64,000 nt of DNA from Candidatus Omnitrophota bacterium (GTDB lineage: Bacteria; Omnitrophota; Gorgyraeia; Duberdicusellales; 4484-171). Positions 30,889-62,144 of this stretch are shown in pieces. Each line of letters starts with the position of its first letter. The stretch's first letter is position 1. The DNA is taken from contig JBDRIY010000054.1 in assembly GCA_043815445.1 (NCBI GenBank), forward strand, positions 527-64,526, read 5' to 3'. The translations under genes and the position numbers were made by a program. The notes beneath the pieces were generated by a model. It saw only the letters and a list, made by a program, of their open reading frames with translations, did not search any database and was not told where the DNA came from.

Positions 30889-31857
30889 CTATACTCTCCT
30901 AACAAAATCAATCACTTTTTTATCATTCACAAACCCCATACTATAACAAGGCACCGCGCTGATTAAATCCTGGCAAAAAGATACAATATTTTCTAAACAC
31001 TGCTTATCCCAAAAAGTAGGAAAAAGCGCGGGATATAGTTTGTTAAAGGCTTCCTTTTTAGAAATTTTCTCCACAATATTTTTTTTGGCGTGGCGAATAA
31101 AGAATAATTTTTTCAAAGGCGCTGAATCTATTCGCGAAGTAAGGTAATCGTTAAAATCACCATGCCAGGGAGAACCGTGAATGGAAAAGCCTTTTCTATC
31201 CTTACGCACAATAATACGATCATCATTCAAAACCATTGCCTTTGTATGTTTATGCCAAATTCGGGCTGTAGTGCTTTTCCCAGCTCCGGATTCACCGGCA
31301 AAAACCAAGCCTTGCCCGTTTAAATCCTTTATCCCAATAGCATGGGTAAAAATCCCTTCCCGCCTTTGAGCAAAATAATTTATTAACAATACCTGTAAAA
31401 AATCATAGATAATATCTCCGGTGCTCCAAACAAATCCTTTGTTTTTTTTAAATAACTCCCGATCTTCTTCTCCAAACATATCTTTTTCTTTTTTAGGCAG
31501 AATAAAAGCTTCTATTTTATCAAAACTTTTGTTTACAAACATTATCTGCTTTTTATCTTCAAGAGGGCTTTTATAAATATAACTATCACCTTTTTTAAGC
31601 AAACGCCAGTTTTCGCTTCCATCCTGAAAATGATAAGTAACAAACAGAGGTTTTGCCTTAAAAACTTGAGGTAATTTATCCACTATTTCTATATCAATTA
31701 AGATATCAGTTTTTTTCTTTCCCTGATAAAAAAAATTATCAAACCTTTCTTCTATTTGAAGCTCTTTCTCTATCTTTGTGAATTGCTTAAGAGGAAACCG
31801 GCTTTGCATTTGAATAACTACGTCCGCAATTTTTAATTTAATTGTTGCTTTTTTCAT
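30889..31857 (-). CDS. HPr kinase/phosphorylase-related P-loop kinase (HprK C-terminal-domain-like)
   Basis: GLVFAGESGAGKSTTARIW aligns to the HprK Walker A (GvLitGdSGvGKSetAL). Size and context resemble the HprK-like kinases found in peptide-modification clusters. Confidence 0.65.
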   Translation of the reverse strand: MKKATIKLKIADVVIQMQSRFPLKQFTKIEKELQIEERFDNFFYQGKKKTDILIDIEIVDKLPQVFKAKPLFVTYHFQDGSENWRLLKKGDSYIYKSPLEDKKQIMFVNKSFDKIEAFILPKKEKDMFGEEDRELFKKNKGFVWSTGDIIYDFLQVLLINYFAQRREGIFTHAIGIKDLNGQGLVFAGESGAGKSTTARIWHKHTKAMVLNDDRIIVRKDRKGFSIHGSPWHGDFNDYLTSRIDSAPLKKLFFIRHAKKNIVEKISKKEAFNKLYPALFPTFWDKQCLENIVSFCQDLISAVPCYSMGFVNDKKVIDFVRRV

Positions 31858-31907: not shown

Positions 31908-33074
31908 CTATATGAATTCTTTAATACGCTTTTGCGCTGTTTTTGCCAACTCACAAAAATATTCTACTTCCTTATGCATATCTCCTGTCTCAAGATAAGC
32001 TTTGCCCGGGCACAATAAACAAAAATCAATCATATCACAGTTATAACACTTAGAATCCGTCTTGATCTTTACTCCGGCTATATTTTGAAATACAGAAAAC
32101 ATTTTTCTTATATCTTCCGGCTCTGCCTTTAATAAATCTATCCCTGGCTCGCGAATACAAGAACACATAAACATCTTCCCGTAAGGATCAATATTAACCC
32201 CGTCTAAACTGCCTGCCGCGCACCTAAAAAGCCTTTTATCACTAATAGTATTTTTCGTCATTCCTACGCCACTTTCATCATTCCCATATTTTTTGTCATT
32301 CCCGCGTTCCCTTTTGTCATTGCCCGGCTTGACCGGGCAATCCAGAAACATATTAATTCCGCCTTCGTCTTCTTCCACGCTTTGGACTTCAAACAACTTA
32401 TCTAATTCTACAATCTGTTCAGGCTTAAGCCGCAGACTGCACGGCGTGGTATCGCCGTCTAACCCCGCCTGCAATAATAAACCAGGCCTGAATTCCAAAC
32501 CTCTACTCTCCAAAAATTCTTTTATTTTCGGCAATTCTTCTAAATTCTGCTGAGTTGCCATAGTCTTTACTTTTAAGGGCAGATTTCTTTTTAAAATCAT
32601 ATCTAAACCTGCCATTGCCTTTTTATATGAACCTTTAACCCTAGTTATATTTTCATAAGTATTCTTGGTTACACCGTTAATAGTTATTTCAATGGCAAAA
32701 GGAGGCCTTTTTGCTAAATAGTCCGCGGCTTGTTCCGTTAAAGAATATCCTGTAGTAAATATAGTTATCAAAAAACCTTTATCTTTAGCATACTCATATA
32801 TTTCTAAAAAATCGTTTCTTTCTAAAGGGTCTCCGCCGGTAAAACAAAGCCAGATAACACCTAATTTATATATTTTATCAATGATAAGCTTAATCTGTTC
32901 AGTATTTAACTCTTTTTTAATATAAGAAGGCTTATTGTAACAATCACAATAACAATGCCCACAATGCAGGCCGCACTTAAAAGTAAGCTCAAACTGACAA
33001 ACATTCTGCTTACTAATCCGCCAGTTTTTTTTATGAGTATTTAAACTAAAATCCTTATATTGAATTGTCTTCAC
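31908..33074 (-). CDS. radical SAM / SPASM-domain peptide-modifying enzyme (paralog B)
   Basis: CGLHCGHCYC (CxxxCxxC), GGDPL, C-terminal Cys-rich SPASM block (CAAGS...CSCI...CYNC...CLLCPG). Contains a low-complexity insertion. Confidence 0.85.
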   Translation of the reverse strand: MKTIQYKDFSLNTHKKNWRISKQNVCQFELTFKCGLHCGHCYCDCYNKPSYIKKELNTEQIKLIIDKIYKLGVIWLCFTGGDPLERNDFLEIYEYAKDKGFLITIFTTGYSLTEQAADYLAKRPPFAIEITINGVTKNTYENITRVKGSYKKAMAGLDMILKRNLPLKVKTMATQQNLEELPKIKEFLESRGLEFRPGLLLQAGLDGDTTPCSLRLKPEQIVELDKLFEVQSVEEDEGGINMFLDCPVKPGNDKRERGNDKKYGNDESGVGMTKNTISDKRLFRCAAGSLDGVNIDPYGKMFMCSCIREPGIDLLKAEPEDIRKMFSVFQNIAGVKIKTDSKCYNCDMIDFCLLCPGKAYLETGDMHKEVEYFCELAKTAQKRIKEFI

Positions 33075-33075
33075 T

Positions 33076-34179
33076 TTAAACCTTTAATGATAGTGACTCT
33101 GCTTTACGTTTACTTTCCGAATCACAACTTGTAAAATCTTTATTATTAAGCCAAGCCTTAGCAGGGCACCACTTGCAATAATCTTCTAATTCACACTCCG
33201 AACATTGATAATTGTCATCAGGCTTTATATCTTTTACCGCCTTTTTCATCTTATCCCAGGCGCTTCTTAAACCCATTTTCAATATATTATATTTTAAATA
33301 ATCAATCATCAAACACATTTTTAATTCACCAAAAGGCGTAATAGCCGCCTGAGCCTGCCCCACCCCGCATTTAAAAAGACTATTCACGCTGCAAGCCGCA
33401 GGCTGCAGGCTACAGGCTTCTCCCCTTTCTCTTCCCTCTCTCTTGCTCCCTTCCTCATTGCTAACTGCTAATTGATAATTGCTAATTGATAATTCCCCCT
33501 TCTCCGTTCCCCCTTCATCCTTCGTTAACACCCCTCTATACTCAAACGGCTCCCTTGAACCGTCTAATCGCGGCAGAAGCATATCATCTAAACGGTGCAA
33601 CGCGCCTAATGAAGCGGCAAAATCTTGTATCTTTTTTATTTCCTTTTCATTTTCTTTTAAAACACAAGTTTTAAATCCCAAGCTAACCTCATTTTTACGT
33701 AAAAGTTCTATTGCCTTAAATACTTTATCCCTTGAACCGTTTGCTCCGCTAATAAGCTCAAACGCTTTTTTACTCATCCCGGGAATTGTAATATCCACTT
33801 TATTCGGACGCAGGCTCCCGAGTTGAGCCGCGATTTTCGCGTTAATCAAAGAACCATTGGTATAAATAATAATCTCGAAACCGGATTTCTTAGCATAACT
33901 AAGAATTTTTATTATATCCTTCCTCATAAAGGGCTCGCCTCCAGTAAACCCTAAATAAAAACAGCCTAAGTCTTTCAATTGGTCTAAAATAATACATATC
34001 TCTTTTGTCTTAAGCTCTTTTTTCTTATTTTTGTAACTCTGCGGAACATAACAATGCCGGCATTTAAAATTACACTCATAAGTCAACTCAAACATCACCC
34101 GTAAAGGAAAAAGTTTCTCGCGCGCCTGTTTATGCAATTTCGCGTAAAATTCCTGATTAATGTCGGTTTTTATCGCCAT
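33076..34179 (-). CDS. radical SAM / SPASM-domain peptide-modifying enzyme (paralog A)
   Basis: CNFKCRHCY, GGEPF, SPASM Cys block (CGVGQ...CLMI...CSEC...CKWCPA). Ends 2 nt before the paralog B start. Low-complexity insertion at the equivalent position. Confidence 0.85.
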   Translation of the reverse strand: MAIKTDINQEFYAKLHKQAREKLFPLRVMFELTYECNFKCRHCYVPQSYKNKKKELKTKEICIILDQLKDLGCFYLGFTGGEPFMRKDIIKILSYAKKSGFEIIIYTNGSLINAKIAAQLGSLRPNKVDITIPGMSKKAFELISGANGSRDKVFKAIELLRKNEVSLGFKTCVLKENEKEIKKIQDFAASLGALHRLDDMLLPRLDGSREPFEYRGVLTKDEGGTEKGELSISNYQLAVSNEEGSKREGRERGEACSLQPAACSVNSLFKCGVGQAQAAITPFGELKMCLMIDYLKYNILKMGLRSAWDKMKKAVKDIKPDDNYQCSECELEDYCKWCPAKAWLNNKDFTSCDSESKRKAESLSLKV

Positions 34180-34308: not shown

Positions 34309-35358
34309 CTAATTTTTTGCCCCAATAGCCAGCGCCCAATAAAAATACGCTTCCGGAATAACAGCCTGAAGCCTCTCAAGAATTTTATATTCCTTCGGAA
34401 ATGTCATTCCCTGAGTTAAGGATAAATCTATATTTTTTATAAGCCGCGGGTTTTCTTTATTTTTAAACATACTCGCCATATATACAATTTTAGCATAAGC
34501 AATTTTTATATCTTGTTTGTTTACCTTTTTCCCTAAATGATTGGTAACTTTAGCCAGGCCATCATCAATAAGCGCAATCTCCGAAAATGAATTATCAGCG
34601 CCTTTAAGTAATGCTTGTGAATATTTAAACGCGATATCTATAACATCATTGAGAACCTCATCCATAGAATAAGCTGTCCCGCGAAAATCATTCTCTTGTT
34701 GTACAGTATTCAGAAAACTCTGCTTCATGTCGTTGATGTCGCTTGCGATATTAAAAAGCTCATTTAAATCAATAATTTGCTTTACGCACTCCATTGACCG
34801 TTTTTCATTTAAAGGAATACCTATAGTCTTAGGCGAAATTGCTGTCATTTTATCGCCTAATAAGCCTTCCGGAGTTGGGATACTGACAACTGCATTTGAA
34901 TTGAAGAATACCAGCGGAAATTTTGATATGTTTTTCTCAACTAGTTTCTTATATGGATACTTTGTAAAAACAACGTCTAAAAGTATATACTGCTGTTCTT
35001 TTGAGAAATGTGATGTAAACTGAAATTTATAATGCGCTTTTGGTATCTTACTGCCGCGAATATTCTCTTTTACGATATTGAACCACTGTGATGTTGATAT
35101 CATCTTGACAAGCGCGCCTTTCAACCCTGCCCGCTCTTCCAGCGGCAAAAGAATATCAATATCTATAGATAGCCGGGCTGGCGGAAAAATATGTAAAAGG
35201 ATAGATGTCCCGCCCTTAAATACCAGCTTCGAATAAACGCCAAGTAATTCATCCAATAAATTAAAGGCATAAACTGTCTTTTCGAAAATTCCACGGTCGC
35301 TAAACCCAAGCTCTTTTCTTAAAGATTCCAACTGATTAATATCTATCTGTTTCTTCAT
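34309..35358 (-). CDS. nucleotidyltransferase AbiEii/AbiGii-family toxin (type IV TA / abortive infection)
   Basis: FKGGTSILLHIFPPARLSIDIDILL (GGT ... R.S.DID motifs). Confidence 0.75.
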   Translation of the reverse strand: MKKQIDINQLESLRKELGFSDRGIFEKTVYAFNLLDELLGVYSKLVFKGGTSILLHIFPPARLSIDIDILLPLEERAGLKGALVKMISTSQWFNIVKENIRGSKIPKAHYKFQFTSHFSKEQQYILLDVVFTKYPYKKLVEKNISKFPLVFFNSNAVVSIPTPEGLLGDKMTAISPKTIGIPLNEKRSMECVKQIIDLNELFNIASDINDMKQSFLNTVQQENDFRGTAYSMDEVLNDVIDIAFKYSQALLKGADNSFSEIALIDDGLAKVTNHLGKKVNKQDIKIAYAKIVYMASMFKNKENPRLIKNIDLSLTQGMTFPKEYKILERLQAVIPEAYFYWALAIGAKN

Positions 35359-35382
35359 AAAAACTACTTTTCTCTTGGTTAT

Positions 35383-36114
35383 CTATGGCAGTAAATTATA
35401 CTTATTGCCATAGATACCATTGTTAAGTCCAAGTTTATCAATGAGTTGTGAAATTAGCTTTCGGAGGTTTCTCCGTCTAACAGCATAATCAAAAACCGCA
35501 GCAAAATTTATCCTGTAAAGATCGTAAATAAATCCCCATAGCTCCCAATAATCAGCTTCCGGCATTATTCTGTATTTATCTTTAATAACATAAAGATCTA
35601 CCATCATCTTTTCAAGATCCGGCTTATGCCCATTTCTTGGTGACCGGTTAATAAGGGAACGCGCAATAATTGGATTTTTTGTAATGTCAAATCCCGCGGG
35701 AGAATCCTTACTTTTAGTTTCCACGAACACATAGCGGTAAAACTGAGATATTCTATCAGTTACAGGATGAACGCCGTCATATTCAACCTCTACAAAAGTG
35801 ATGTGGTGTGTTTGCTGATGATGATAATAAGGCTGAAAATATAATGTATTCCAAATAAGAAAATCAAGATCAGGAAATTCCTTTTTGATAAGCTGACGAA
35901 TTTTAATAACACGGTTATTTTTCGGACAAATAAATTCCTTTGAAACAGAAGTATATAGACCGCGCCCAGCAGAAAAAACAATTTTTTCGTCTTTAAACGA
36001 CTGTAGATAATTAAGTAACGTCTGCCTTCCAAGCCTCGTATCCTTAACAATCTGCGCTAAAGAAAAATAACGATGATTTCTTATGTATTCTCTAATTAAT
36101 TCTTTTTTATCCAA
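35383..36114 (-). CDS. AbiEi-like antitoxin / transcriptional regulator paired with AbiEii
   Basis: Co-oriented with and immediately upstream of the AbiEii gene. Winged-helix-like N-terminus IREYIRNHRYFSLAQIVKDTRLGRQTLLNYL. Confidence 0.5.
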   Translation of the reverse strand: MDKKELIREYIRNHRYFSLAQIVKDTRLGRQTLLNYLQSFKDEKIVFSAGRGLYTSVSKEFICPKNNRVIKIRQLIKKEFPDLDFLIWNTLYFQPYYHHQQTHHITFVEVEYDGVHPVTDRISQFYRYVFVETKSKDSPAGFDITKNPIIARSLINRSPRNGHKPDLEKMMVDLYVIKDKYRIMPEADYWELWGFIYDLYRINFAAVFDYAVRRRNLRKLISQLIDKLGLNNGIYGNKYNLLP

Positions 36115-36315
36115 AGCTCACCTCGATTTTGATAATTCAAGCTTCTTTGCTCTACACTGGCTATTATAACATTGGGAATTTGAAAAATGAAGAGGCTATT
36201 ACAATGGCCCCCGAAGCCTGCCCTGATTATTATATCGGGATTCCACAAGGATAATGCTAAAGGATAAACAGATATATTTACGGCAAATAACTGGGTCCTC
36301 TTTCCTCTGGTTTGC

Positions 36316-36434
36316 TTGATTAATATCAGTTTTTATCGCCATTGCCTTCCTAAATCATTCGCGCCTGAAGCGATTATCTAAAATTAGCTTCCCTACCTTA
36401 AGAATGTCTACCACAGAGTCACAAAGACACAAAG
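36316..36434. repeat. duplicated copy of the upstream region + first 8 codons of rSAM paralog A (original at 34154..34272)
   Basis: ~110 nt near-identical. Includes atggcgataaaaactgatattaat (MAIKTDIN), with no downstream continuation. Confidence 0.6.
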
Positions 36435-36460
36435 TAGAAACAAACCCCTGTATCTGTCCG

Positions 36461-36895
36461 TTATAGAACCATTCTCTTTACGCCGTTTTTCATTAAATCA
36501 GTATTAAAATTCAAAATTAACCCTATGCTTAATCCTGTTAATTTTAAATAGGTTAGCAATTGCGCTTGATGAACAGGTAAAATATTTTCTACACATTTCA
36601 TTTCAACTATCACTATATTTTCTACAATTAAATCAATCCTGTATTTTTCCGCTAACTTTATGTTTTTGTAAACGATAGGGATCTCTTTTTGCCTTAGATA
36701 CTTAACTTTATTTAATTCAAATTCCTTACATAAACATTCCTCATAGATAGATTCTAATAATCCATGGCCTAAGTGTTTATGAACTTCTATAGCACATTTT
36801 ATTATTTTTTCCGATATTCTATTCCTTAACTCTAATTTATCCATTGTATTCCTCTGTGCCTCCGTGACTCTGTGGTTTAAAGTTTTCATACCCAC
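36461..36895 (-). CDS. GxxExxY-family protein (PD-(D/E)XK-like)
   Basis: HGLLESIYEECL (G-x-x-E-x-x-Y) motif. 144 aa. Confidence 0.65.
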   Translation of the reverse strand: MGMKTLNHRVTEAQRNTMDKLELRNRISEKIIKCAIEVHKHLGHGLLESIYEECLCKEFELNKVKYLRQKEIPIVYKNIKLAEKYRIDLIVENIVIVEMKCVENILPVHQAQLLTYLKLTGLSIGLILNFNTDLMKNGVKRMVL

Positions 36896-36922: not shown

Positions 36923-38068
36923 TTAATGCCGGTTTTCATCGCCATTTTTCTGTTTATTTTCTAACTCTTCATTTAACGCCCGCGCTAATTCGCAATAATA
37001 AGGAACTGGGGCTTCTTCATCGCCTGTTTCTAAATAGGCTCTGGCCGGGCAGTGATAACAAAGCGCGCGTAACTTACAATCCCTGCATTTTGAGTCAGTT
37101 TTAAATTTCTCGCTTAATAATTTAGGAAATGCTTTATAAAACCCTTCCGCGAACGATACTTTCTTTAAATCCACGCTAAACTTATCAGAAAAAGCGCAAA
37201 ACTTAAGCCGGCCATAAGGATTAATAAAAAACTGGCTCATCCAGGCATTACAGCGGTAAAGAAATTGCCTGTCTCTCTCTAAATCAGGAAAATCATTGTC
37301 TAATCCTTTTTGATACTGCTTCCAAATATCAGAATCCTGCTTTTTCGCCTCTATCAATTCTTGGGCAGAAAGCCTATACTGACAAGGAGTTTTATCTCCA
37401 TTAAACCGGGGGTATATCATTGGATCATATTTAAAATAGTATTTATTCTTTGCCGGTTTTCCCAGAAGTTCTTCAGTAAATTCTTTTATCTTACCGACTT
37501 CATTTTTATTCTGCTTAAGACAATTTGTTTTTAGTATTAAGGGGAGTTTTTTCTTTGCTAATAATTTAACAGTTCTCATCACCTTAGAAAAAGAGCCCTG
37601 AACCTGAGTAATCGCTTCATAAGTTCTTTGGGTTATGCCATTTAAGGTAATTTCTATAGAACAAGGCGGGGATTTAACCAGATAAGAAATGATTTCTTTT
37701 GTAAATTTTTGGCCATTGGTAAAAACAGTTATAATAAATCCTTTTTCTTTAGCATAAGCGTATATCTCTAAAAAATCCTTTCTGATTAAAGGGTCTCCGC
37801 CGGTAAGAGCCAGCCAAAGGCATCCTTGCTTGTGAATTTCATCAAGAATTGTCTTCCATTGCTTTGCGGTTAATTCTTCACCCCTATTTTCGCTCCCTTT
37901 GCAGTAGCAGTGGCCGCAGTTCAAATTGCAGCGATAGGTAAGCTCAATATGCGCGCTCCAAGGATAATGTTCTTTCTTGTTTTGCAGTTTATTATAAAAA
38001 CGGCCGGAGTTTTGAACTTTCATATAAAAAGTTTTTCCTTTATAGACAAACTTAATCTGCGCGCCCAA
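36923..38068 (-). CDS. radical SAM / SPASM-domain peptide-modifying enzyme (paralog C), directly downstream of precursor peptide 1
   Basis: CNLNCGHCYC, GGDPL, SPASM Cys block (CNAW...CAFS...CRDC...CYHCPA). No low-complexity insertion. Confidence 0.85.
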   Translation of the reverse strand: MGAQIKFVYKGKTFYMKVQNSGRFYNKLQNKKEHYPWSAHIELTYRCNLNCGHCYCKGSENRGEELTAKQWKTILDEIHKQGCLWLALTGGDPLIRKDFLEIYAYAKEKGFIITVFTNGQKFTKEIISYLVKSPPCSIEITLNGITQRTYEAITQVQGSFSKVMRTVKLLAKKKLPLILKTNCLKQNKNEVGKIKEFTEELLGKPAKNKYYFKYDPMIYPRFNGDKTPCQYRLSAQELIEAKKQDSDIWKQYQKGLDNDFPDLERDRQFLYRCNAWMSQFFINPYGRLKFCAFSDKFSVDLKKVSFAEGFYKAFPKLLSEKFKTDSKCRDCKLRALCYHCPARAYLETGDEEAPVPYYCELARALNEELENKQKNGDENRH

Positions 38069-38116: not shown

Positions 38117-38326
38117 TTAAGAATTAGCGGATGTCAGCGACCAGTTATTACTGTTCCCTCTATGGCCCTTCCCACTGTAACATATATCGGCCCGTAGAGG
38201 CCAGTTAGTCTCACCCCTAAGCGGGTAGATTTTACCAAGATCCCAACAATCGCACATTAGCACCGCCTGTTCCGCATTAAGTTTTACCCGTGTAATTTCC
38301 GGCTTAAATTTTGGTTTTCTAAGCAT
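38117..38326 (-). CDS. candidate RiPP precursor peptide 1 (69 aa from Met17 of the ORF-track entry)
   Basis: MLRKPKFKPEITRVKLNAEQAVLMCDCWD leader shared with two other peptides. Core has 1 further Cys and ends ...TSANS. AGGAGG lies 7 nt upstream of the ATG. Confidence 0.6.
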   Translation of the reverse strand: MLRKPKFKPEITRVKLNAEQAVLMCDCWDLGKIYPLRGETNWPLRADICYSGKGHRGNSNNWSLTSANS

Positions 38327-38366
38327 TCCCGTGACCTCCTTTCGTTTTTTATTTTTTATAATAAAA

Positions 38367-39965
38367 CTACTCAATTATAAATATCTGAATTGCTTCAAGG
38401 CCGTTAGGGTAATAAATCGTTTTGATTGGGACTTTATGAGAATATTCTTTTTTAAAAGAAACATATTTATAAATAAACAAATCACCCCAATAATCCTGAG
38501 AATGAGATTCCGGCGCCCAAAGAACATAAATTCTTTTTTTTTGTTCTTTTTCGCCTTGAACTAAACGAAAATCATAATATTTATCTATTTTGCCTTTTTC
38601 CCAAAGGTAATAATTAAGGTAAAAATCCGTTGTCATTCTGCTATCTTGAATTATAACATAATCTTTAATGTTATCCAATTGGCTTAAATATTCCCCGGCC
38701 TCTTGACAGCCATAACTATTATGCCGGCACTGGCCTAAATCCAGAGGCGCGGCGTAACAAAACTTTGTCCATTGCACTGCCTCCGTAATTATTAAACTAA
38801 AGCAAAATGTACCCGTAATAATCAAAATGAACGCTTTTGTAAAGCCTTGTTTTTGCAAGCCATAGTTAAATATCTGCGCAATGAACTTAGCAATTAAAAT
38901 TATTATCGGCGGCAAAATAATAAGAGCGTATCTTGGCTGAAAAAAATTCACTCCGCCTAAAACTCCTATCAACCCTAAAATCAGCCAGGTTAAAAGAATT
39001 TTATCCGCTGTTTTCCTTTGAAAAAAAGAAGTAATACAAGAGGTGAATAAAAGAAAAAATGCTATTGGGTGAGCTAATAATGGCGCTTTCAAAGCCTTGC
39101 CGTAAAGCAAAGATGAGCTTTTAAAGTTAAAAAACAACTCTTTAAAGGTAAATAACGTATTATTTTTAATATTTACCCAAATATTAGCAAATAAATTACC
39201 TTTAAAAATGTTTTCCTGATACGCGCGGTAGAAACTTTGCCCGAATTCATCTCCCCTTATCATACTTTTATAGATAAAAGGCAAGCTGAATAAACCCGCG
39301 ATTAATAATAAAATAACAGTTATCTTGGAATTTAAAAGATATCTCGCATCTTTTTTAGCCCATATTAACGATATAAAAAATATAGGGGCAAAAAGGGCCG
39401 CGGACTCATAACTTACTAAAGATTTTTGCATAAAAAAACAAGATAATATAAACCATAGCCCAATCCCTATTTTTTCTTTATTCTCAATTGCTTTAAAAGC
39501 CTTGAACAAACTTAAAAAAATTAAACAGCCGAAAAAAGGAACCCAAATTACCCTGCCCATAATCCGGCTATGAATTAAATGCCAGGGAAGAAAACATAGC
39601 AAAAGTGAAGATATTAGAGCTGTTTTACGGCCATACATACACTTTGCTAATATATACAGCAATACAACTGTCCCCGCCCCTATGATTATCGGCTCAAAGC
39701 GGCAATGAATCATAAAATTGTTTAGGGTAAATACTTCCGGCGAAGATATACGTGAAATCAAAAAAAAACGCAGAGAATAGGGGATAAAAAAAATTATAGG
39801 TATACCTATGATTTCTTTAATTAATTCCGGCCAGATCAGTAAAATCCTTGCCCAATTAGCTTCATCATGATTTACGGGCAACATCTTTATATTATAAAAT
39901 CTTATAATAAACGCGCCGATGAAAATAACAATAATTAATAAAATATCCGGCAGTAATCGCTTCAT
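38367..39965 (-). CDS. GT-C-fold membrane glycosyltransferase (PMT/ArnT-like), paralog 1, 40 nt upstream of peptide 1
   Basis: Multi-TM. First-loop acidic motif NHDEANWAR. PMT_2-like block LLCFLPWHLIHSRIMGRVIWVPFF. ~150 aa C-terminal soluble domain. Start set at MKRLLPDILL by homology to the paralog (ORF-track start 40010). Confidence 0.55.
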   Translation of the reverse strand: MKRLLPDILLIIVIFIGAFIIRFYNIKMLPVNHDEANWARILLIWPELIKEIIGIPIIFFIPYSLRFFLISRISSPEVFTLNNFMIHCRFEPIIIGAGTVVLLYILAKCMYGRKTALISSLLLCFLPWHLIHSRIMGRVIWVPFFGCLIFLSLFKAFKAIENKEKIGIGLWFILSCFFMQKSLVSYESAALFAPIFFISLIWAKKDARYLLNSKITVILLLIAGLFSLPFIYKSMIRGDEFGQSFYRAYQENIFKGNLFANIWVNIKNNTLFTFKELFFNFKSSSLLYGKALKAPLLAHPIAFFLLFTSCITSFFQRKTADKILLTWLILGLIGVLGGVNFFQPRYALIILPPIIILIAKFIAQIFNYGLQKQGFTKAFILIITGTFCFSLIITEAVQWTKFCYAAPLDLGQCRHNSYGCQEAGEYLSQLDNIKDYVIIQDSRMTTDFYLNYYLWEKGKIDKYYDFRLVQGEKEQKKRIYVLWAPESHSQDYWGDLFIYKYVSFKKEYSHKVPIKTIYYPNGLEAIQIFIIE

Positions 39966-40140
39966 TTTTTTATGAAACTTTAACTTTCCCATTTTTCGCG
40001 CAGTCCTCAAAGGGTGCTACATTCTTCAATTATCCAAAATTATAAATTCCTGTTTTTACATAATGGCAGCTATAGGGAAAAATGCCTGTGGACGCCTGTC
40101 AACCGATAAACTATAATTAATGTAGATTACAAAGATTAAA

Positions 40141-41547
40141 CTATTCAATGCTATTCTTATTTCTTCTAAACTTAACTCCGCGAATAATCTTATCTGCCTC
40201 TTTATTAAATAACTTTATTTTTCCTGCTTTTTTGTAACATTTCATAAGAGCAAGGCTAACGCGATTATCATTCAAATTCATTTCTTTTGCTTTTATCAAT
40301 GCTTCTATAGCTTTTTTATAATGCCTTAAAGCCTCATAACAAAGGCCTAAAATTAGATAGGCTTTGCCCCCTTTGTAATTTAATTTGAAAACCCTTCTTA
40401 TATTTTTAATAGCTTCCTTATGTTTATGTAACTTCAAATATGCCTCACCAAGTTTTAAATAAGCTAAAATTTTATTCCCATCATCACAAGCGCTCTTTAA
40501 TTCATTTTTATATATTCTTATGGCTTTTCTTTCATCGCCTTTATCTCTTTTAATCGAATTATTCCTTTTTATTAAGACTGCTTTCTTAAATAATGATTCA
40601 CAATAACCGCAGGTATCGCATTTTAAATTACAATTAAGCATTTTCTTAAAAAAATAATTTTTAACCAGAATATCATAATCTATATATTCAAAATAAGAAA
40701 GGCCCGGACAGTCCAGTATTTCCAAAAGATTACCTCTAAAATGTTTACTAATATAAGCCTTGAGGCATAATTCAATTCTCTTTGTAGAAAAAACTCTCGT
40801 TGATAACTTATAATGATTTACAAATTTATCATAACAATCTAATGCGTCTGGCGGTATAAAAGGTACACGGAATACTTTTAAGGAGTTTTTTAAATATACT
40901 TCAATGCAAAATTTATCAGGAAAAACACCTTCTATGATTTTTCCTCGAGATTTTTCTCTATGTGATAAATAATTATAATGATTAACCCTATAAGGACAGT
41001 TGCCCAAACAACCCTCATTAAGCATTACTCGTATTTGAAGGCCGGTTCTCTTCTTTATCTCTTTTATTAAATTAATACTACGATTTATATCCCTATCAAT
41101 GGTTAATACATCTACGCCTAAATCTTTAAGATATAAGGCATGCTCAACGGTTTTCATATAACAGTTAACGGACGACTCTATTATTATACCGCTAATTTCC
41201 TTTTTGATTTTACTAATATAAATAGGGTTCGTAACTACCACAGAGCTAAGCCCTTTATCTCTCAATCTTTTTACATAATCCAATATATTATTAAAAAAAG
41301 TTCCGCTTAATCCAATAACGCCTTCACAGGTCGCGTTTAATAAAAGCTGTGGCCTGATATTTAAAGTATTACATTTTCTTATAATTTTCGGAATCTGTCT
41401 TGTATATGACTTTGGCTCCTGTTGATCCCTTCCAGAACCCAAATATAGCTGCGGTATAGGAAAATAAAAAGCTTCTATATTATCCTTATATGCGCCAATA
41501 AGGTCTAACATTTTAATATCATAGTTATATCCTATAGAGAATTTCAT
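40141..41547 (-). CDS. peptidase-U32-family protein (collagenase-like TIM barrel, Cys cluster) with C-terminal TPR repeats
   Basis: IEAFYFPIPQLYLGSGR ... VVVTNPIYI ... SVNCYM ... IRVMLNEGCLGNCPYRVNHYNYLS follows the U32 block order. CDTCGYCE, then TPR-like helices. Confidence 0.55.
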   Translation of the reverse strand: MKFSIGYNYDIKMLDLIGAYKDNIEAFYFPIPQLYLGSGRDQQEPKSYTRQIPKIIRKCNTLNIRPQLLLNATCEGVIGLSGTFFNNILDYVKRLRDKGLSSVVVTNPIYISKIKKEISGIIIESSVNCYMKTVEHALYLKDLGVDVLTIDRDINRSINLIKEIKKRTGLQIRVMLNEGCLGNCPYRVNHYNYLSHREKSRGKIIEGVFPDKFCIEVYLKNSLKVFRVPFIPPDALDCYDKFVNHYKLSTRVFSTKRIELCLKAYISKHFRGNLLEILDCPGLSYFEYIDYDILVKNYFFKKMLNCNLKCDTCGYCESLFKKAVLIKRNNSIKRDKGDERKAIRIYKNELKSACDDGNKILAYLKLGEAYLKLHKHKEAIKNIRRVFKLNYKGGKAYLILGLCYEALRHYKKAIEALIKAKEMNLNDNRVSLALMKCYKKAGKIKLFNKEADKIIRGVKFRRNKNSIE

Positions 41548-41565
41548 TATCTTAAAATTAATAAA

Positions 41566-41790
41566 TTATGAATTTGAACATCTAGCAGTGCAGTTCTCTT
41601 GGGTAGGTCCAGGCACAGATCTGCAGTATCCGCTTCCCTTTGACGTACAAATCTTCTCCATCCCATCGACAGTACGGAGAGCACCGCCGTCAAGCCAGCC
41701 ATCATCGTAACAGTCACAACTTAATACTGCTTGTTCAATATTAAGTTTTACTTTTGTTATTTCCAGCTTAAATTTTAGTTTTTTAGGCAT
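41566..41790 (-). CDS. candidate RiPP precursor peptide 2
   Basis: MPKKLKFKLEITKVKLNIEQAVLSCDCYD leader. Core has 4 further Cys and ends CSNS. AGGAGGTG RBS. Confidence 0.6.
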   Translation of the reverse strand: MPKKLKFKLEITKVKLNIEQAVLSCDCYDDGWLDGGALRTVDGMEKICTSKGSGYCRSVPGPTQENCTARCSNS

Positions 41791-42048
41791 TTCTCACCTC
41801 CTTGTAATAGAATCACACTACTTTGTTAAAGACTCAAAACATATCCCTTTAAACCTTAAATTCTATAAAACTCAAAATGAATTCCCTTGAGGTAAATATG
41901 ATTTAAAATTTAGATCTAAGCTTAATTTTGCTAAAAAACTTGTTGATGAAATATAACATAAGGTGTCAGCTTTTCTTATCAGCACAATTAGATTAGATAT
42001 TCTAAATCCTAAAAAAATAAATCTCCAAATCGATAAATACAAAAGAGT

Positions 42049-42255
42049 TTAAGATGTGTGACAAGATGAATCGCACTGCGTCCTCCTCGTCATCGTACGA
42101 GTAGCCGGATCGCACACCATTAAATTTGGCAGTCTCGCACGATGTGAACTTCCCTCCCTGCCACTCCATTGGTAACAACCGCAATATAACACTGCCTGCT
42201 CCACTTTGAGTTTTATCTGTATAATTTCCGGCTTAAATTTTAGCTTTCTAAACAC
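42049..42255 (-). CDS. candidate RiPP precursor peptide 3
   Basis: MFRKLKFKPEIIQIKLKVEQAVLYCGCYQW leader. Core has 3 further Cys and ends SCHTS. GGGAGGT RBS. Confidence 0.6.
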   Translation of the reverse strand: MFRKLKFKPEIIQIKLKVEQAVLYCGCYQWSGREGSSHRARLPNLMVCDPATRTMTRRTQCDSSCHTS

Positions 42256-42289: not shown

Positions 42290-43894
42290 TTATCTAAGTA
42301 TAAATATCTGAATTGCCTCAAGCCTATTGGGGTAATAAATAGTTTTGATTGGCCTTTCATCTGGATATTCTTTTTTAAAAAAATTAAACTGCCGAGCAAA
42401 TAAACCGCCCCAATAATCCTGATGATGAGATTCCGGGGCCCAAAGAACATAAATTCTTTTTTTTTGTTCTTTTTCGCCTTGAACTAAACGAAAATAATAA
42501 TATTTATCTATTTTTCCTTTTTCCCAAAGGTAATAATTAAGGTAAAAATCCGTTGTCATTCTGCTATCTTGAATTATAACATAATCTTTAATATCATCCA
42601 ACTGGCTTAAATACTCCGCGGCCTGTTGACAGCCATAACTGTTATGCCGGCACTGATTTAAATCCAAAGACGCGGCATAACAAAATCTTGTCCATTGCGT
42701 CATCTCAGTAACGATTAAACTAAAACAAAGCGCGCCCGCGGTAATCAGGATAAACGCTCTCCTAATTCCTTGTTTTTGGAAACTATAACTAAACATTTGA
42801 GAAATAAATTTAGCGACAATAATTACCATCGGCGGTAAAATAATAAGGACGTATCTTGGTTGGAAAAAACTCACTCCGCTTAGAACTCCCGCAAACCCTA
42901 AAATCAGCCAAATTAAAAGAAGCTTATCCGCTGTTTTCCTTTGGAAAAAAGAAATAATACAAGATACAGTTAGAAGAAAAAATACTATCGGGTGCGCCAG
43001 TAAAGGAGCTTTTAATGCCCGGCCGTAAAGCAAAGATGAACTTTTAAAGTTAAAGAATAAATCTTTGAAGGCAAAGGCAGTATTATTTGTAATATTTGCC
43101 CAAATGTTAGCGAATAGGTTGCTTGTAAAGATATTCACCTGATACCCGCGGTAAAAGTCTCTCCAAAATTTATCTCCTATTGTTATAATTTTATAAATAA
43201 AAGGCAGGATAAATAAAGAAACAATTAGCAATAATGCAATGCCTGTTTTGGGGCTTAAAAAGCTTTTTCTTTCTCCCATAATCCAAAATAATGACACAAA
43301 AAGTATCGGAATAAAAATAATCGCGGATTCATAGCTTGTCAAAGACCCTTGCAGAGAAAAACAAGATAGCAAAAACCATAATCCGGCCCATATTTTTTCT
43401 TTATTCTTGATTGCCTGCAAGGCTTTAAATAAACTTAAAAAAATCAAACAGCCAAAAAAGGGAATCCAGATCACCCTGCCCATAGTCCTGCTATGAATTA
43501 AATGCCAAGGAAGAAAGCATAATAAAAGTGAAGATATAAGGGCTGTTGGACGGCCATACATATATCTTGCCAATATATATAACAATACAACTGTGGCCGC
43601 CCCTATGATTATTGGTTCAAAACGGCAATGGACTATAAAGTTATTTAGGGTAAATGTTTCCGGCACAGATACGCGCAGAGCTAAAAAAACCCGTAAAAAA
43701 TAAGGTAGAAAGGGAAAGGAAATTACAGGAATACCTATAATTTCCTTAATAAATTCCGGCCTTTTCAGCAAAAACCTTGCCCAATTCGCTTCATCATGAT
43801 TTATAGGTAGTATTTCTATATTGTAAAATCTTATAATAAACGCGCCGATAAAAATACTAGTAATTAATAAAATATCCGGCAGCGATCGCTTCAT
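42290..43894 (-). CDS. GT-C-fold membrane glycosyltransferase (PMT/ArnT-like), paralog 2, 34 nt upstream of peptide 3
   Basis: ~75-80% identical to paralog 1 by eye. Same NHDEANWAR and PWHLIHSR blocks. Confidence 0.55.
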   Translation of the reverse strand: MKRSLPDILLITSIFIGAFIIRFYNIEILPINHDEANWARFLLKRPEFIKEIIGIPVISFPFLPYFLRVFLALRVSVPETFTLNNFIVHCRFEPIIIGAATVVLLYILARYMYGRPTALISSLLLCFLPWHLIHSRTMGRVIWIPFFGCLIFLSLFKALQAIKNKEKIWAGLWFLLSCFSLQGSLTSYESAIIFIPILFVSLFWIMGERKSFLSPKTGIALLLIVSLFILPFIYKIITIGDKFWRDFYRGYQVNIFTSNLFANIWANITNNTAFAFKDLFFNFKSSSLLYGRALKAPLLAHPIVFFLLTVSCIISFFQRKTADKLLLIWLILGFAGVLSGVSFFQPRYVLIILPPMVIIVAKFISQMFSYSFQKQGIRRAFILITAGALCFSLIVTEMTQWTRFCYAASLDLNQCRHNSYGCQQAAEYLSQLDDIKDYVIIQDSRMTTDFYLNYYLWEKGKIDKYYYFRLVQGEKEQKKRIYVLWAPESHHQDYWGGLFARQFNFFKKEYPDERPIKTIYYPNRLEAIQIFILR

Positions 43895-43984: not shown

Positions 43985-44158
43985 TAATCTCTTTATGCCA
44001 AATATATTATGGACTGTTTCTTCAAAGTTTGGTAAATCTATTAGGTTAACTTCGAAAGTTTGGTTTGAAAAAATTCTTTTAGAGCATCCTGAATTCTCTA
44101 TTTTACCTGAATATTCAGATGAATTACGAAAAACCAGGGAAGTAAAATGGCGCAAATA
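43985..44158 (+). CDS. small ORF (57 aa), possible toxin partner of the DUF2283-like gene
   Basis: Found by hand, not in the ORF track. MPNILWTVSSKFGKSIRLTSKVWFEKILLEHPEF... Overlaps the downstream ATG by 11 nt (AAATGGCGCAAATAA). Confidence 0.3.
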
Positions 44159-44362
44159 AATATTGTAAAAAGAACTAAGCTGAATTATGACTCGGAAAGC
44201 GATGTGCTTTATATTAATTTTGATCAGCCTCAATCTGCTGATGACAGCGATATCACTGACGAAGGAGTAATTATTCGCCTCAGGGAAAATAAAATTGTCG
44301 GGCTGACTATTCTTAATGCCGCTAAGGCGCTGGTAAGTCATCCTAAACATAAACACTCCTAA
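44147..44362 (+). CDS. DUF2283-like small protein (putative antitoxin-type partner)
   Basis: 71 aa. KLNYDSESDVLYINFDQP...EGVIIRLRENKIVGLTILNA matches the DUF2283 pattern (Y D xxx D xLYI). Confidence 0.5.
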   Translation: MAQINIVKRTKLNYDSESDVLYINFDQPQSADDSDITDEGVIIRLRENKIVGLTILNAAKALVSHPKHKHS

Positions 44363-45843
44363 CTCGCGCTAAACCGGGGATATAAAATTCTCAACTTTTC
44401 CTCTATAATCATCATTTTCTTCTCAATTTTATACAACCCCCTATCTCTTCCATTTTTCTTCTGCCGCAGTCTTTTTGTTTTCAAAAATCCTTTTTTAAAT
44501 TCCTGATATCTATCGCTTATATATTGAATAAGCTCAAATTTGTTTTTAAGATATGGCAAAACCTTGAAAAGCCGCGATAGAACTTCTAGATTACTATAGC
44601 CTGTTCTAATAGCATCCTTATAAAAACCAGCGGCATCATCATATTTTTCTTCATACTCAAAGACGTGGCCTAAAAAATAATAGCTTTGCGCTTGTAAAGG
44701 TTCCAAAGCGCAGTATCGCAGTAACAATTTCTTGGCCTTATTAAAATTTTTTAAATTAAACTCTGTTTTTGCCAGTCCAAACATACTTTCTTTTTGGGCC
44801 TTACTAAATAAACTATCTTTTGTTAAATTTAAAGGTAAAGAAAAATATTTTTTTGCTTTTTTGAAATCTTTTCTTTCTAAAGCAATATTACCTACGCCCC
44901 ATAGTGAGGCTGGATTTTTAGGGTCAACCCGCAATATTTTCAAGAATTCCTTTTCAGCAAGGATAAACTTTCTTAAGGATAAATAAAGCGGGCCGTAATT
45001 ATTATCTTCCGCCCTATAACCGGAATTTATTTCTACTGCTTTACGATAATACTCTTTCTTTCCTGTGGAATAAAAAAGGTTAAAATATTCAGCGGCCTTA
45101 GTATTAATCGAATATCTTTTTTTAAACTTCTCGGGAAAAAAATAATAAGCGATTTCATCCCCTAAATGTTTATATTTCATTGGGGTATAACCGCCATTTA
45201 CTGAATAAGCAATGGTAGTAACTACAGGCCGCCGGACTTTGTCTTTAAGGATATTTACCAATTCCTGAGGTAGAATCCAAGGCCGCCTTTTGCCTATTTT
45301 TATGGTATTATTCGCGTTTAAAAGGCTGTCCACAACTAAAAAATCCGTATCGATGTCCAATAGAATAGGCTGTTCTAAGAATGGTAATTTATCCAACACA
45401 CAAACAATAAACTTTCTTCCTAAAATTTCAGCTGACGCCCAACCGTCTTTTACTATGAGAGATTTTTTATTCTCTTTTTTTATGAAATTTTTGAGGCTAT
45501 TCTTAACAATTTTTAAGGACATTTTAAATTCCTTTAATTCGCCGGGGATAACCCAATAAAAATTCTTAACAATACCTTCTTGAATTGCTGGATAAATATA
45601 ATTTCCGATATTAGTTTGCTTATCAAAGTTTTTTTCATAACGTGTAAAAGCAAGGCTGTATTCTAAATTTCTTTTTAACTCCCGCAAACTTTTTGCCTGG
45701 CTAAATACCTCTTTTATTGGTTTTGCTGGACAAAAACCAAAGTCCATATGAGCGTCAATGTGCACTAAATCAAGGTTTTTAACCCCTCTTTTCCGCCATA
45801 CCGCTAATGCTTGATCGTGATCTTCAATAATATTAATATCCAC
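44359..45843 (-). CDS. protein with arginase/deacetylase-fold-like N-domain (LVHIDAHMDFG) and C-terminal TPR repeats
   Basis: D-A-H-x-D metal-site-like motif. TPR-like helices in the last 200 aa. Confidence 0.35.
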   Translation of the reverse strand: MDINIIEDHDQALAVWRKRGVKNLDLVHIDAHMDFGFCPAKPIKEVFSQAKSLRELKRNLEYSLAFTRYEKNFDKQTNIGNYIYPAIQEGIVKNFYWVIPGELKEFKMSLKIVKNSLKNFIKKENKKSLIVKDGWASAEILGRKFIVCVLDKLPFLEQPILLDIDTDFLVVDSLLNANNTIKIGKRRPWILPQELVNILKDKVRRPVVTTIAYSVNGGYTPMKYKHLGDEIAYYFFPEKFKKRYSINTKAAEYFNLFYSTGKKEYYRKAVEINSGYRAEDNNYGPLYLSLRKFILAEKEFLKILRVDPKNPASLWGVGNIALERKDFKKAKKYFSLPLNLTKDSLFSKAQKESMFGLAKTEFNLKNFNKAKKLLLRYCALEPLQAQSYYFLGHVFEYEEKYDDAAGFYKDAIRTGYSNLEVLSRLFKVLPYLKNKFELIQYISDRYQEFKKGFLKTKRLRQKKNGRDRGLYKIEKKMMIIEEKLRILYPRFSAS

Positions 45844-46706: not shown

Positions 46707-48292
46707 TCAGTGTATAAAAAATTTATATATTTTAGCTCCTGAACTAACTAAAGGAGCAATTATGCTAATAAACCGGTTAATAAGCCTTGTCTTAACGCTC
46801 TCAAAACTAATTATTTTTTTATTTTTTATAATACCCATAACCTTACCTAAAAACATTTCCTCAGGGACAAGCTGAGCCGCTGATATAGAATTATCTCCAC
46901 GAATATAAAACAACTGTTTATTGCCTTGTTTACTTTTTTTACCAGGCGGTGGCAAACCTTTTGATTATCTTCCTGATATAAAATAATATCTCCTATTTTC
47001 AAACTTTCAGGCAAAATCTTTTTAATTATAAGCTTTTGACCTTGTTTTATGAACGGCCACATACTAAAGCCAGATGTTTCGAAAAAGGATAAATCATTGT
47101 CTAAATCTTTTTCTTTAGCTTTAAACGCTTTAACATTGGCTGTGAACGAGCTTATTACTTTAAAAAACATATAAAATAGGCGGCTTTTATAGAAAAAGTT
47201 AGCTTTTCGGCTATAAGCGTTAAGGCCGTAATAATTAGCAAATTGTTCCTGAGGAATGTTTAAAATATAATTTGCCGGCTCTTTAAACGTATCGTATAAC
47301 AAAAAATGCGATTTAAGATAAAGTTTTTTACGTTGAGTTTGCGCGTCCGGTAAAAAAGTGTATTTTTCTATAAAATTTTGAATTAATTTCTTTTTATATT
47401 TAGAAACATTCAATTCTTTCATCAAACGCTGATAAAAATTCAGGCCGCTAAGAAATTCTACCTGATAAAGAATAAAAAATAAAGCTGAGCAAAGCTCATA
47501 TTTCTTGCTGACATTTAGACAGTATTCCCAATCAAAAGTTTTTTCATACTTATTCAATAATAACGCGGCATCATAAACGTTTTTTAAGGATAATACCTTA
47601 CCAAATCTTCGCGCGTGCAAGGCTAAGCTAAAAAGAGTATCTTCCGGCGAAAGTAGTTTTATCGCCCTGCCTTCTCTATTAACTTCTCGAACCCTGTCCC
47701 AAATTTCCGGCAATATCGCCCTGCCTTTTCGCTTAAAATCAATACCCCAGTGAAGTTCAGTAACACATAATTTATTTTCTTTTTTAAAAACAAAAGTAAT
47801 ATGGCACTGATCTTGTTTCCAATATTCTTCAGTAAAACCGCCTAACTGTTTCTTATACCCTGCATCATATAATATTGACGCCCCCTTTTCAACATCCCCC
47901 TCTTTAACCAAAAAATCTATATCCGTCATCAGCCGCAAAGGCATCCGGATATATATATCCTCAAGCAATGCCGCGCCTTTAAGAGGTAAAAGCATAACTT
48001 CTGCCTGCTCAAAAGCAGTTAATATCCGCAAAAACTCCTGCCGGATACCTTGACAACGAACCAAAGCGCAATAATGGTTATTTTTCAAAAACTCTATTAA
48101 ATCCAAAGGCAACAACGAGCTAAAATCCTTAACTAAAGAATAAACAAAAGGCGTTAATTCATGATAATTAATAAACTCTTTAAATCTTTCCCAATTGATA
48201 GATTGAGAGTTCAATAATGTTTCAATATTATCTTCTTCTACACCAACTAATTTTCTGACAACAGCTTTAATAAACTCTATTTCAGGAATCAT
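46707..48292 (-). pseudogene. PF14907-type nucleotidyltransferase fused to an S24/S26-like peptidase domain, split by a frameshift in an A7/T7 run (~46932..46938)
   Basis: N-terminus LLPLKGAALLEDIYIRMPLRLMTDIDFLV (NTP_transf_5-like). The C-terminus of the 481-aa ORF has GFSMWPF ... IGDIILY ... CHRLVKKV. The overlapping 82-aa ORF continues YIRGDNSISAAQLVPEEMFLGKV (signal-peptidase boxes D and E). Confidence 0.5.
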
Positions 48293-55281: not shown

Positions 55282-55282
55282 T

Positions 55283-60272: not shown

Positions 60273-60300
60273 TGTTCTCTCCTACTCCTGCACTCCAAGT

Positions 60301-60714: not shown

Positions 60715-60716
60715 TT

Positions 60717-62129: not shown

Positions 62130-62144
62130 TTTTAATTTTGCTTT

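Follow-up and report, generated by a model that had tools for sequence, protein, structure and literature searches.

Three short open reading frames (ORFs) in a genome fragment of Candidatus Omnitrophota begin almost alike and end quite differently, and the question they raise is what is made from them, and by which enzymes. The fragment belongs to contig JBDRIY010000054.1 (assembly GCA_043815445.1), of which we analysed a stretch of 64,000 nt, hereafter the window. We hold it very probable that the three ORFs are precursors of a RiPP family (RiPPs are peptides that are ribosomally synthesized and then modified post-translationally), one that is typical of Candidatus Omnitrophota and is matured by a clustered set of enzymes; the product is most likely a new type of modified, secreted peptide. 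The first-pass annotation had already read the ORFs as RiPP precursors, and this reading gains support both from their conserved leader and variable core and from the RiPP recognition element (RRE) and maturase genes that cluster with them. All three ORFs are present where that annotation had placed them, on the minus strand:

38117..38326, minus strand: precursor peptide 1, 69 aa, ATG start; leader at about residues 1 to 24, then C25-x-C27-W28; one further Cys; C-terminus TSANS
41566..41790, minus strand: precursor peptide 2, 74 aa, ATG start; four further Cys; C-terminus CSNS
42049..42255, minus strand: precursor peptide 3, 68 aa, GTG start; three further Cys; C-terminus CHTS

The features first reported for these peptides recur on closer analysis: a Shine-Dalgarno site, (A/G)GGAGGT, stands 6 to 8 nt upstream of each start; every peptide ends in Ser; and the N-termini are shared as far as C-x-C. 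Alignment of the three yields 19 invariant positions, 16 of which fall within residues 1 to 27 (M1, K4, K6, F7, K8, E10, I11, K15, L16, E19, Q20, A21, V22, L23, C25, and C27), and the leader motif, scanned for in all six frames, occurs in the window in these three copies and no others. The likeness of the leaders is, by these statistics, far beyond chance, because a locus-derived relative matches all three in tblastn searches (E values of 1e-10 to 6e-7) and because a profile of the family matches 868 cluster representatives. The residues mark the window's lineage as one with a divergent leader, since the Pro of N-P-E-Q, found in 154 of 159 family members, is replaced by Ala, Ile or Val in all three window peptides, Pro5 is substituted in peptides 2 and 3, and Pro9 is substituted in peptide 2. 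Peptide 2 probably corresponds to the public protein P0001 (ABIH08_03815, a “hypothetical protein”), which has the same length of 74 aa and is the top profile match (E = 3e-31). No other deposited protein was found for the three; peptides 1 and 3 appear to be unannotated in the public record, in the case of peptide 1 as judged from the locus-tag numbering, which leaves it no slot.

When the three peptides were searched as a profile, 26 short proteins came up in metagenome bins of Candidatus Omnitrophota. An exhaustive profile search, the kind of route to further members that had been proposed at first pass, then gave 868 cluster representatives (clusters at 50% identity), of which 643 score E ≤ 1e-10; Candidatus Omnitrophota is the source of almost all, and the best 150 of the 868 are 38 to 115 aa long. 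Leader and core statistics were taken from 159 sampled members, in which leaders are fixed and cores variable. The leader consensus reads M-[PSA]-[RK]-K-P-K-F-K-P-[EV]-I-T-R-[VI]-K-L-N-P-E-Q-A-V-L-x-C-x-C-[YFW]; E-Q-A and the first Cys are invariant in 159/159, and V, L, and the second Cys occur in 158 to 159 of the 159. Cores are rich in G, S, T, A, and Y, contain Arg in 144 members, and end in Ser in 152, Thr in six, and Ala in one. The claim that the remainder of the peptides cannot be aligned stands for the three window peptides, which diverge completely after C-x-C, but not for the family at large, where a loose Cys/Ser scaffold underlies the cores: C-x-C-(Y/F/W), about 21 aa, Cys3, about 13 aa, Cys4, about 19 aa, and a terminal Ser. 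Exactly two extra Cys, at constrained spacing, are present in 100/159 members, with K or R at position Cys3+5 in 43/100. Pfam and NCBIfam scans of the peptides returned no match at E ≤ 0.1, the leader strings are absent from the searchable literature, literature searches combining Omnitrophota with RiPPs or precursors yielded generic surveys of biosynthetic gene clusters only, and the viral contigs that were searched hold no relatives of the precursors. This is a large, previously undescribed precursor family typical of Omnitrophota.

A distinct “CC-type” subfamily has a leader ending in KLNPEQAVLSC that is followed by C-C, not C-x-C, and Cys-rich cores of about 35 aa ending in Ser-Ser. Up to nine such copies are dispersed in one genome (loci L059–L063, L066, and L069–L071 of assembly STF1_137), often without maturases within 10 kb; others were found at L065 and L068, at L058, and at L067.

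That the ORFs are translated follows from how the family's genes vary. Over 62 distinct genes, nucleotide identity at codon positions 1, 2, and 3 is 0.81, 0.85, and 0.45, and the invariant leader residues are encoded by mixed synonymous codons; the target of selection is therefore the protein and not an element of DNA or RNA. By this signature, the three ORFs are translated, leader-conserved, and core-hypervariable peptides. The boundary between the two parts is sharp in the window itself, where a unit consisting of a GT-C-type glycosyltransferase (GT-C) gene plus a leader is duplicated with 79% DNA identity over 1,733 bp: homology stops exactly after the C-x-C codons (near window position 38245), beyond which only 38% identity remains. 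Across genomes, adjacent radical S-adenosylmethionine (rSAM) enzymes are 45 to 75% identical and leaders 77 to 85%, compared with 15 to 21% for cores (shuffled cores, 13 to 18%). Core turnover is thus, by these comparisons, abrupt and far faster than that of the leader, and the prediction of fixed leaders with varying cores holds both in the 159 sampled members and against the divergence of neighbouring genes. A diversity-generating retroelement was rejected as the source of this variation: there is no reverse transcriptase among the annotated ORFs, and the cores differ in length, are unalignable, and do not vary at A positions. The N-terminus might have been the signal or anchor of an ordinary secreted protein, a possibility raised at first pass; it is instead basic, with a net charge of +4 over the first 24 residues, a maximal 10-residue Kyte-Doolittle mean of 0.8 to 1.3, and no uncharged run longer than 11 in the first 30 residues. 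A Sec/Tat signal peptide or membrane anchor was rejected for lack of a hydrophobic h-region after the charged n-region.

The second line of evidence comes from gene context, which was sampled by look-ups of five homologues and at 60 loci from species-representative genomes (nearly all Omnitrophota, a few with other automated labels), many of them on incomplete contigs. A recurrent, co-directional order, seen for example in L034, L038, and L052, runs NTP_transf_5, SpI-like (signal peptidase I-like) peptidase, peptide arginase/TPR, PqqD, precursor, rSAM_A, rSAM_B, ScmC-like, rSAM_C, ABC exporter, NTP_transf_5. Far from lacking modification enzymes, as had been considered at first pass, the homologues adjoin rSAM genes at 41/60 loci (modal number, three) and a PqqD-type RRE at 39; they are further accompanied by a ScmC-like (HprK/ScmC-like) gene at 30 loci, an ABC exporter at 29, a peptide-arginase domain and an SpI-like peptidase at 20 each, NTP_transf_5 at 14, a pair of U32 genes at nine, and a cobalamin-binding (B12) rSAM at eight. 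Each cluster holds one to three precursors, with two or three in many, and GT-C genes recur in clusters L012, L034, L042, and L052. The precursors are genomically locked to a fixed enzyme set.

Domain arrangements vary among these loci. The SpI-like domain is N-terminally fused to a GT-C glycosyltransferase in L034 (6217..8274), adjoins one in L052 (6213..8282), and is fused to NTP_transf_5, in both orders, at several loci. Many clusters have an adjacent pair of U32 genes (of about 346 and 290 aa) where the window has a single U32-TPR fusion, namely L001 (11537..13446), L016, L020, L027, L032, L039, L043, and L046; by analogy, this pairing recalls the UbiU-UbiV heterodimer (PMC6747719).

In the window, all cluster components lie on the minus strand, rearranged, scattered, and interrupted by insertions:

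28609..30375, minus strand: MsbA/HlyB-type ABC exporter without a C39 peptidase domain (Pfam ABC_membrane and ABC_tran; NCBIfam); the terminal gene of the canonical cluster
30532..30813, minus strand: PqqD-family RRE, 93 aa (tblastn, 70 to 77% identity to precursor-adjacent PqqD genes elsewhere; NCBIfam ScmD, PqqD, and lasso PqqD at about 1e-7)
30889..31857, minus strand: ScmC-like protein with predicted HprK/PEPCK-type P-loop kinase fold, candidate peptide Ser kinase (NCBIfam ScmC 7e-8 and HprK_rel_B 5e-7, both below cut-off)
31908..33074, minus strand: radical SAM/SPASM enzyme C (profile matches, SPASM signature)
33076..34179, minus strand: radical SAM/SPASM enzyme B (profile matches, SPASM signature)
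34309..36895, minus strand: three inserted genes (AbiEii toxin, DUF6577, and GxxExxY/PDDEXK_3) that break up the cluster and do not belong to the system
36923..38068, minus strand: radical SAM/SPASM enzyme A, directly downstream of peptide 1 (Pfam Radical_SAM 6e-23); same position as rSAM_A in canonical loci
38367..40010, minus strand: GT-C/PMT_2-like membrane glycosyltransferase, paralogue a, directly upstream of peptide 1 (PMT_2 6e-5, Agl23/STT3-like); likely true start near 39965
40141..41547, minus strand: U32-family TIM-barrel protein with C-terminal TPR domain (Pfam U32 9.6e-5)
42290..43894, minus strand: GT-C/PMT_2-like paralogue b, directly upstream of peptide 3 (PMT_2 2.4e-6, above the Pfam cut-off)
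44147..44362, plus strand: DUF2283 gene inside the cluster region
44359..45843, minus strand: peptide-arginase-like (UPF0489/FlmR_OhkR_N) domain fused to TPR repeats (NCBIfam pept_arginase 7e-13, Pfam UPF0489 5e-9)
46722..48292, minus strand: NTP_transf_5 fused to an SpI-like domain (PF14907 5.6e-40; sigpep_I_arch 1e-8)

The two GT-C paralogues share 75% aa identity, and both belong to the segmental duplication of GT-C gene plus leader; further GT-C, GT1, and GT2 genes follow beyond the NTP_transf_5/SpI gene.

Sequence motifs and structural models indicate what most of these proteins might do. All three rSAM enzymes carry CX3CX2C and the complete seven-Cys SPASM signature, and their best NCBIfam matches, all below cut-off, include MftC, PqqE, and AhbD/NirJ. 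The PqqD protein has only marginal matches in the PDB, to TbiB1 and one PqqD-family entry. The ScmC-like protein, whose homologues carry Pfam PF27840 (ScmC), has invariant GxSGxGKS (P-loop) and NDDR motifs; sequence searches of the PDB, with the single sequence or a profile, gave only weak, P-loop-centred HprK matches. Its AlphaFold2 (AF2) model (mean predicted confidence, pLDDT, 87.5) is matched by Foldseek to PEPCK (1e-7) and to the HPr kinase/phosphorylase structures 1knx (6e-5) and 1ko7 (3e-4), and so the predicted fold is that of the PEPCK/HPr-kinase superfamily. The SpI-like proteins have a conserved Ser box (G-F-S-M-W-P), a His box (C-H-R-L), and R-G-D-x-S, and their profile matches SEC11A at 8e-8; the lack of a hydrophobic N-terminal anchor, together with the fusions to NTP_transf_5 and GT-C, suggests a cytoplasmic catalytic domain. 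In the arginase-like domain, the HxDxHxD and DIDxD metal-site motifs are covered by an alignment with 8brp, a peptide arginase of solved structure. The U32-TPR protein, whose homologues are named U32 peptidases by their sources, matches PDB entry 5d88 by sequence (6.7e-6) and, from an AF2 model of pLDDT 88.5, as the top Foldseek match (E = 1.3e-8; target TM score, 0.72); its C59, C180, and C184 are invariant, and CX3CX2CX2C is nearly so. The exporter aligns with HlyB-type models from about position 127 of the models.

The closest published system is that of the linear polyphosphorylated peptides (LPPs) of Bacillota (Popov et al. 2026, PMC13381572). Both have short precursors with a conserved N-terminal leader and a variable C-terminal part, one to three per cluster, in glycosyltransferase-rich loci that share five gene functions: a discrete RRE, an NTP-transferase, and an exporter resembling MsbA are present here, as is an SpI-like (archaeal-type signal peptidase I) peptidase, the window copy of which is frameshifted, and the ScmC-like protein is a candidate for the HprK-like kinase, having a predicted fold of the PEPCK/HprK superfamily and P-loop and DD motifs, with a sequence likeness to HprK that is weak and below NCBIfam cut-offs. 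As in LPPs and in the lasso peptides paeninodin and pseudomycoidin, a hydroxyl amino acid is the likely phosphorylation site (the C-terminal Ser in the lasso cases; PMC6993621). Membership fails, however, on account of the leader motif, of three rSAM/SPASM enzymes among the core genes, and of the phylum. The leader is K-F-K-P-E-I-T-R-V-K-L-N-P-E-Q-A-V-L-x-C-x-C, not YxxPxVLxHQxIxFETxxS, and bears only an F-x-P-x-I resemblance to the [Y/W]xxP motif by which LPP leaders bind their RRE. The three rSAM/SPASM enzymes are core members, which makes a linear product unlikely for the Omnitrophota system. Often there are additional genes here for peptide arginase-TPR, U32 proteins, B12-rSAMs, and GT-C enzymes; the kinase-like protein belongs to Pfam ScmC and not to a recognised HprK family; and the hosts are Omnitrophota, a phylum other than the Bacillota to which LPPs and paeninodins are reported as restricted.

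Among database concepts, the closest is the SynChlorMet (Scm) cassette of NCBIfam/TIGRFAMs, in which the same four protein types stand side by side (ScmC, the PqqD-like ScmD, and the rSAM/SPASM proteins ScmE and ScmF) and to whose models the window proteins' only ScmC/ScmD matches are made. All scores fall well short of the model cut-offs (ScmC, 32.1 versus 125 bits; ScmD, 31.4 versus 100; ScmE/ScmF, 65 to 90.7 versus 400), and the cassette has two rSAMs versus three here. Literature searches on SynChlorMet found no published description of the cassette or its precursor. Sactipeptides and ranthipeptides likewise pair SPASM rSAM maturases and an ABC exporter with Cys-containing leader/core precursors, but here the RRE is a separate PqqD protein and not an N-terminal domain of the rSAM, there are three paralogous rSAMs per cluster, and the precursor has no similarity to known families. 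Matches to their maturase and precursor models (AlbA, SkfB, StsB, PapB, CefB, SCIFF, and others) are all far below cut-off, and membership cannot be claimed.

Prochlorosins are made by one enzyme, ProcM, from many dispersed, hypervariable precursors. Conserved leaders, hypervariable cores, several precursors per genome including dispersed orphans, and core turnover much faster than that of the leader all recall them; the likeness is one of evolutionary logic only, given their lanthionine synthetase enzymology and Nif11/NHLP leader family. Two further pathways were considered and set aside. For a lasso (paeninodin-type) pathway, no cyclase or B2 protease is found among the identified neighbours in the window or the related loci, though no query for either was run; the window's sole asparagine synthase (62145..63947) lies 20 kb off and is a complete AsnB that includes a GATase domain. 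The FlmR/OhkR precursors, arginase substrates of the FlmA/OhkA type, are unrelated, bearing a C-terminal DD(I/V)LF (PMC12703449) where the present peptides are Ser-rich and Ser-ending.

From these parallels we infer, by analogy, Cys cross-links, phosphorylation of the C-terminal Ser, and conversion of Arg to ornithine. In the scheme that we propose, the discrete PqqD-type protein would bind the basic leader (K-F-K-P-E-I-T-R-V-K-L-N-P-E-Q-A-V-L) and present the peptide to the enzymes. The three rSAM/SPASM enzymes would cross-link C-x-C-(Y/F/W) and the one to four further Cys, with thioethers as the likeliest type of link, to give a constrained scaffold with free loops; the C-x-C pair, suggested at first pass as a recognition or first cross-link site, is a plausible candidate for either. 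Peptide arginases convert Arg to ornithine (PMC12703449), and the arginase-TPR protein may do so in the core. In lasso peptides, the C-terminal Ser receives a phosphate from HprK-type kinases, and an NTP-transferase adds a hexose to this phosphate (PMC6993621). The ScmC-like protein, with its HprK/PEPCK fold, would similarly phosphorylate a Ser, for which the C-terminal residue is the best candidate because it is the only near-invariant Ser and because of the parallel to paeninodin and pseudomycoidin; the NTP_transf_5 enzyme would then decorate the phosphate. U32 proteins, where present, could be of the Fe-S type and introduce a further redox modification, possibly an O2-independent hydroxylation of the kind performed by the 4Fe-4S proteins UbiU and UbiV (PMC6747719). 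LPP maturation involves an SpI-like peptidase and an RRE along with a kinase of HprK-like type, an NTP-transferase, and a pump resembling MsbA, and the leader is removed by the SpI-like peptidase LppS (PMC13381572); here, the cytoplasmic SpI-like peptidase would cleave near residue 24, the ABC transporter would export the product, and this may, in the window's lineage, receive glycans at the membrane from GT-C glycosyltransferases. Because cores are diverse, clusters hold several genes, and orphan copies are dispersed, the data point to a combinatorial library of products from one enzyme set.

Several observations weigh against this reading or parts of it. Every chemical step is inferred, and none of the three rSAMs matches a characterised or curated maturase family above cut-off. 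The ScmC-like protein is only weakly similar to HPr kinase by sequence (E = 0.12 with a profile), and its best structural matches are to PEPCK, with TM scores of about 0.4. The phosphorylated Ser of LPPs is core residue 3 and not the C-terminus (PMC13381572), and at least one 20-kb locus, L025, has a Ser-ending precursor with no ScmC-like gene in range (the cluster exceeds the fetched stretch), so the link between Ser and kinase is not strict. The Cys pattern of the window's U32 protein differs from the CX6CX15CX3/4C of characterised U32 Fe-S proteins (PMC6747719). The window's own copy looks partly degenerate: the N-P-E-Q Pro is missing from all three leaders, toxin-antitoxin-like insertions split the cluster, PqqD lies 7 kb from the nearest precursor, and the SpI-like domain (46722..47092) is divided between two frames at an A7 run (around 46933–46939), a frameshift that is either an assembly error or a mark of decay into a pseudogene.

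Other explanations account for parts of the evidence. The peptides could be linear and phosphorylated in the manner of LPPs only, while the substrate of the rSAMs would be something else, for instance a cofactor or glycan that belongs to the polysaccharide locus around them; candidates for all five LPP core functions are indeed present (PMC13381572), and glycosyltransferases and additional rSAM genes abound in the window region. Yet three SPASM-type rSAMs stand directly beside the precursor, in the same direction, at most loci and whatever the surrounding genes; SPASM enzymes paired with PqqD are typical peptide maturases; core Cys are conserved at constrained spacing; and the LPP leader motif is absent. 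We regard this as very improbable. Origin of a peptide-derived redox cofactor, as from PqqA for PQQ or MftA for mycofactocin, would have only C-x-C-(Y/F/W) converted, the tail serving as scaffold, and would fit the combination of PqqD with rSAM/SPASM enzymes whose best matches include MftC, PqqE, and AhbD/NirJ, which is a hallmark of such pathways, as well as the strict invariance on the core side of C-x-C and the aromatic residue only. Such precursors are normally single-copy with a conserved reactive end, whereas the present clusters hold one to three each and a genome may have as many as nine dispersed copies; moreover, the tail retains a Cys scaffold and C-terminal Ser, and a dedicated ABC exporter, leader peptidase, kinase-like protein, arginase, and glycosyltransferases argue for a secreted, decorated peptide, leaving the cofactor explanation very improbable.

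Short, Cys-containing, hypervariable peptides next to an ABC exporter could also be small secreted proteins that are left unmodified (class II bacteriocins, disulfide-rich toxins, or surface peptides), with the N-terminus as the export signal. The peptides have neither a hydrophobic signal nor a double-glycine motif, the ABC protein is devoid of a C39 peptidase domain, and it would go unexplained why an RRE and at least seven enzyme families are so tightly associated with the precursors, so that we give this little credence indeed. That the ORFs are chance or non-coding by-products of a repeated DNA element, as the position of the leader region within a duplicated segment of the window might suggest, is refuted by the codon analysis (third-position identity of 0.45 versus 0.81/0.85, and many synonymous codons, over the 62 genes), and conserved Shine-Dalgarno sites and 868 protein clusters speak against it too; its probability is close to nil. 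RiPP precursors with dedicated maturases thus remain the favoured reading.

RRE-dependent, rSAM-modified RiPPs combined with LPP-type tailoring represent an unusual composite maturation machinery, in which the LPP/paeninodin tailoring toolkit, thought to be restricted to Bacillota, is linked to multi-enzyme radical SAM chemistry. Somewhat short of an even chance, in our estimate, is the bolder proposition that this is a chemically new, Omnitrophota-specific RiPP class, in which one enzyme set (three rSAM/SPASM enzymes, a ScmC-type kinase, a peptide arginase-TPR, an SpI-like leader peptidase, and an NTP-transferase) turns a prochlorosin-like library of cores into multiply cross-linked, ornithine-containing peptides that are phosphorylated or phosphoglycosylated on the C-terminal Ser. 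The model predicts rSAM-dependent steps of −2 Da, +80 Da on the C-terminal Ser, and Arg-to-ornithine conversion. If it holds, some lineages would have the first U32 Fe-S enzyme acting on a peptide (by anaerobic hydroxylation) along with membrane glycosylation by GT-C enzymes. Two enzyme types not earlier tied to RiPPs would then be so, namely U32 Fe-S proteins (literature searches combining U32 with RiPP found nothing) and GT-C transferases fused or adjacent to a leader peptidase, and the orphan ScmC/Scm-like cassette would gain a candidate substrate. The precursor family itself is large (at least 868 sequence clusters), comes from a poorly understood and uncultivated phylum, and consists of members that are “hypothetical” or uncalled. 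Omnitrophota are ultra-small and probably host-dependent or predatory, and a diversifying repertoire of secreted peptides could therefore mediate host or prey interaction, or else strain-level competition; the family may thus bear on how nano-sized Omnitrophota interact with other cells. A fixed leader, tolerant enzymes, and natural core hypervariability would also be attractive for peptide engineering.

Beyond the precursors, toxin-antitoxin or defence-like genes, including a nucleotidyltransferase/HEPN pair, occur in and around the cluster (34309..36895; 44147..44362, plus strand; 52841..53900, plus strand). The inserted AbiEii/DUF6577/GxxExxY genes were not detected in related loci by queries with cluster genes, the inserted genes themselves not having served as queries. 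A promoter and terminator scan of the region from 36.8 to 46 kb gave counts at shuffle expectation. From 53926 to 63947 lies a second radical-SAM-rich block in which no precursor was identified and which comprises two B12-binding rSAMs, one rSAM/SPASM protein, one further rSAM, a methyltransferase, a GT2, a 137-aa protein without Pfam match (60301..60714), and the AsnB-type asparagine synthase. Elsewhere in the window are two large ORFs without Pfam match (22188..25142, 984 aa; 20848..22053, 401 aa) and a ribonucleotide reductase gene (15837..19430) into which an intein bearing a LAGLIDADG homing-endonuclease domain is inserted.

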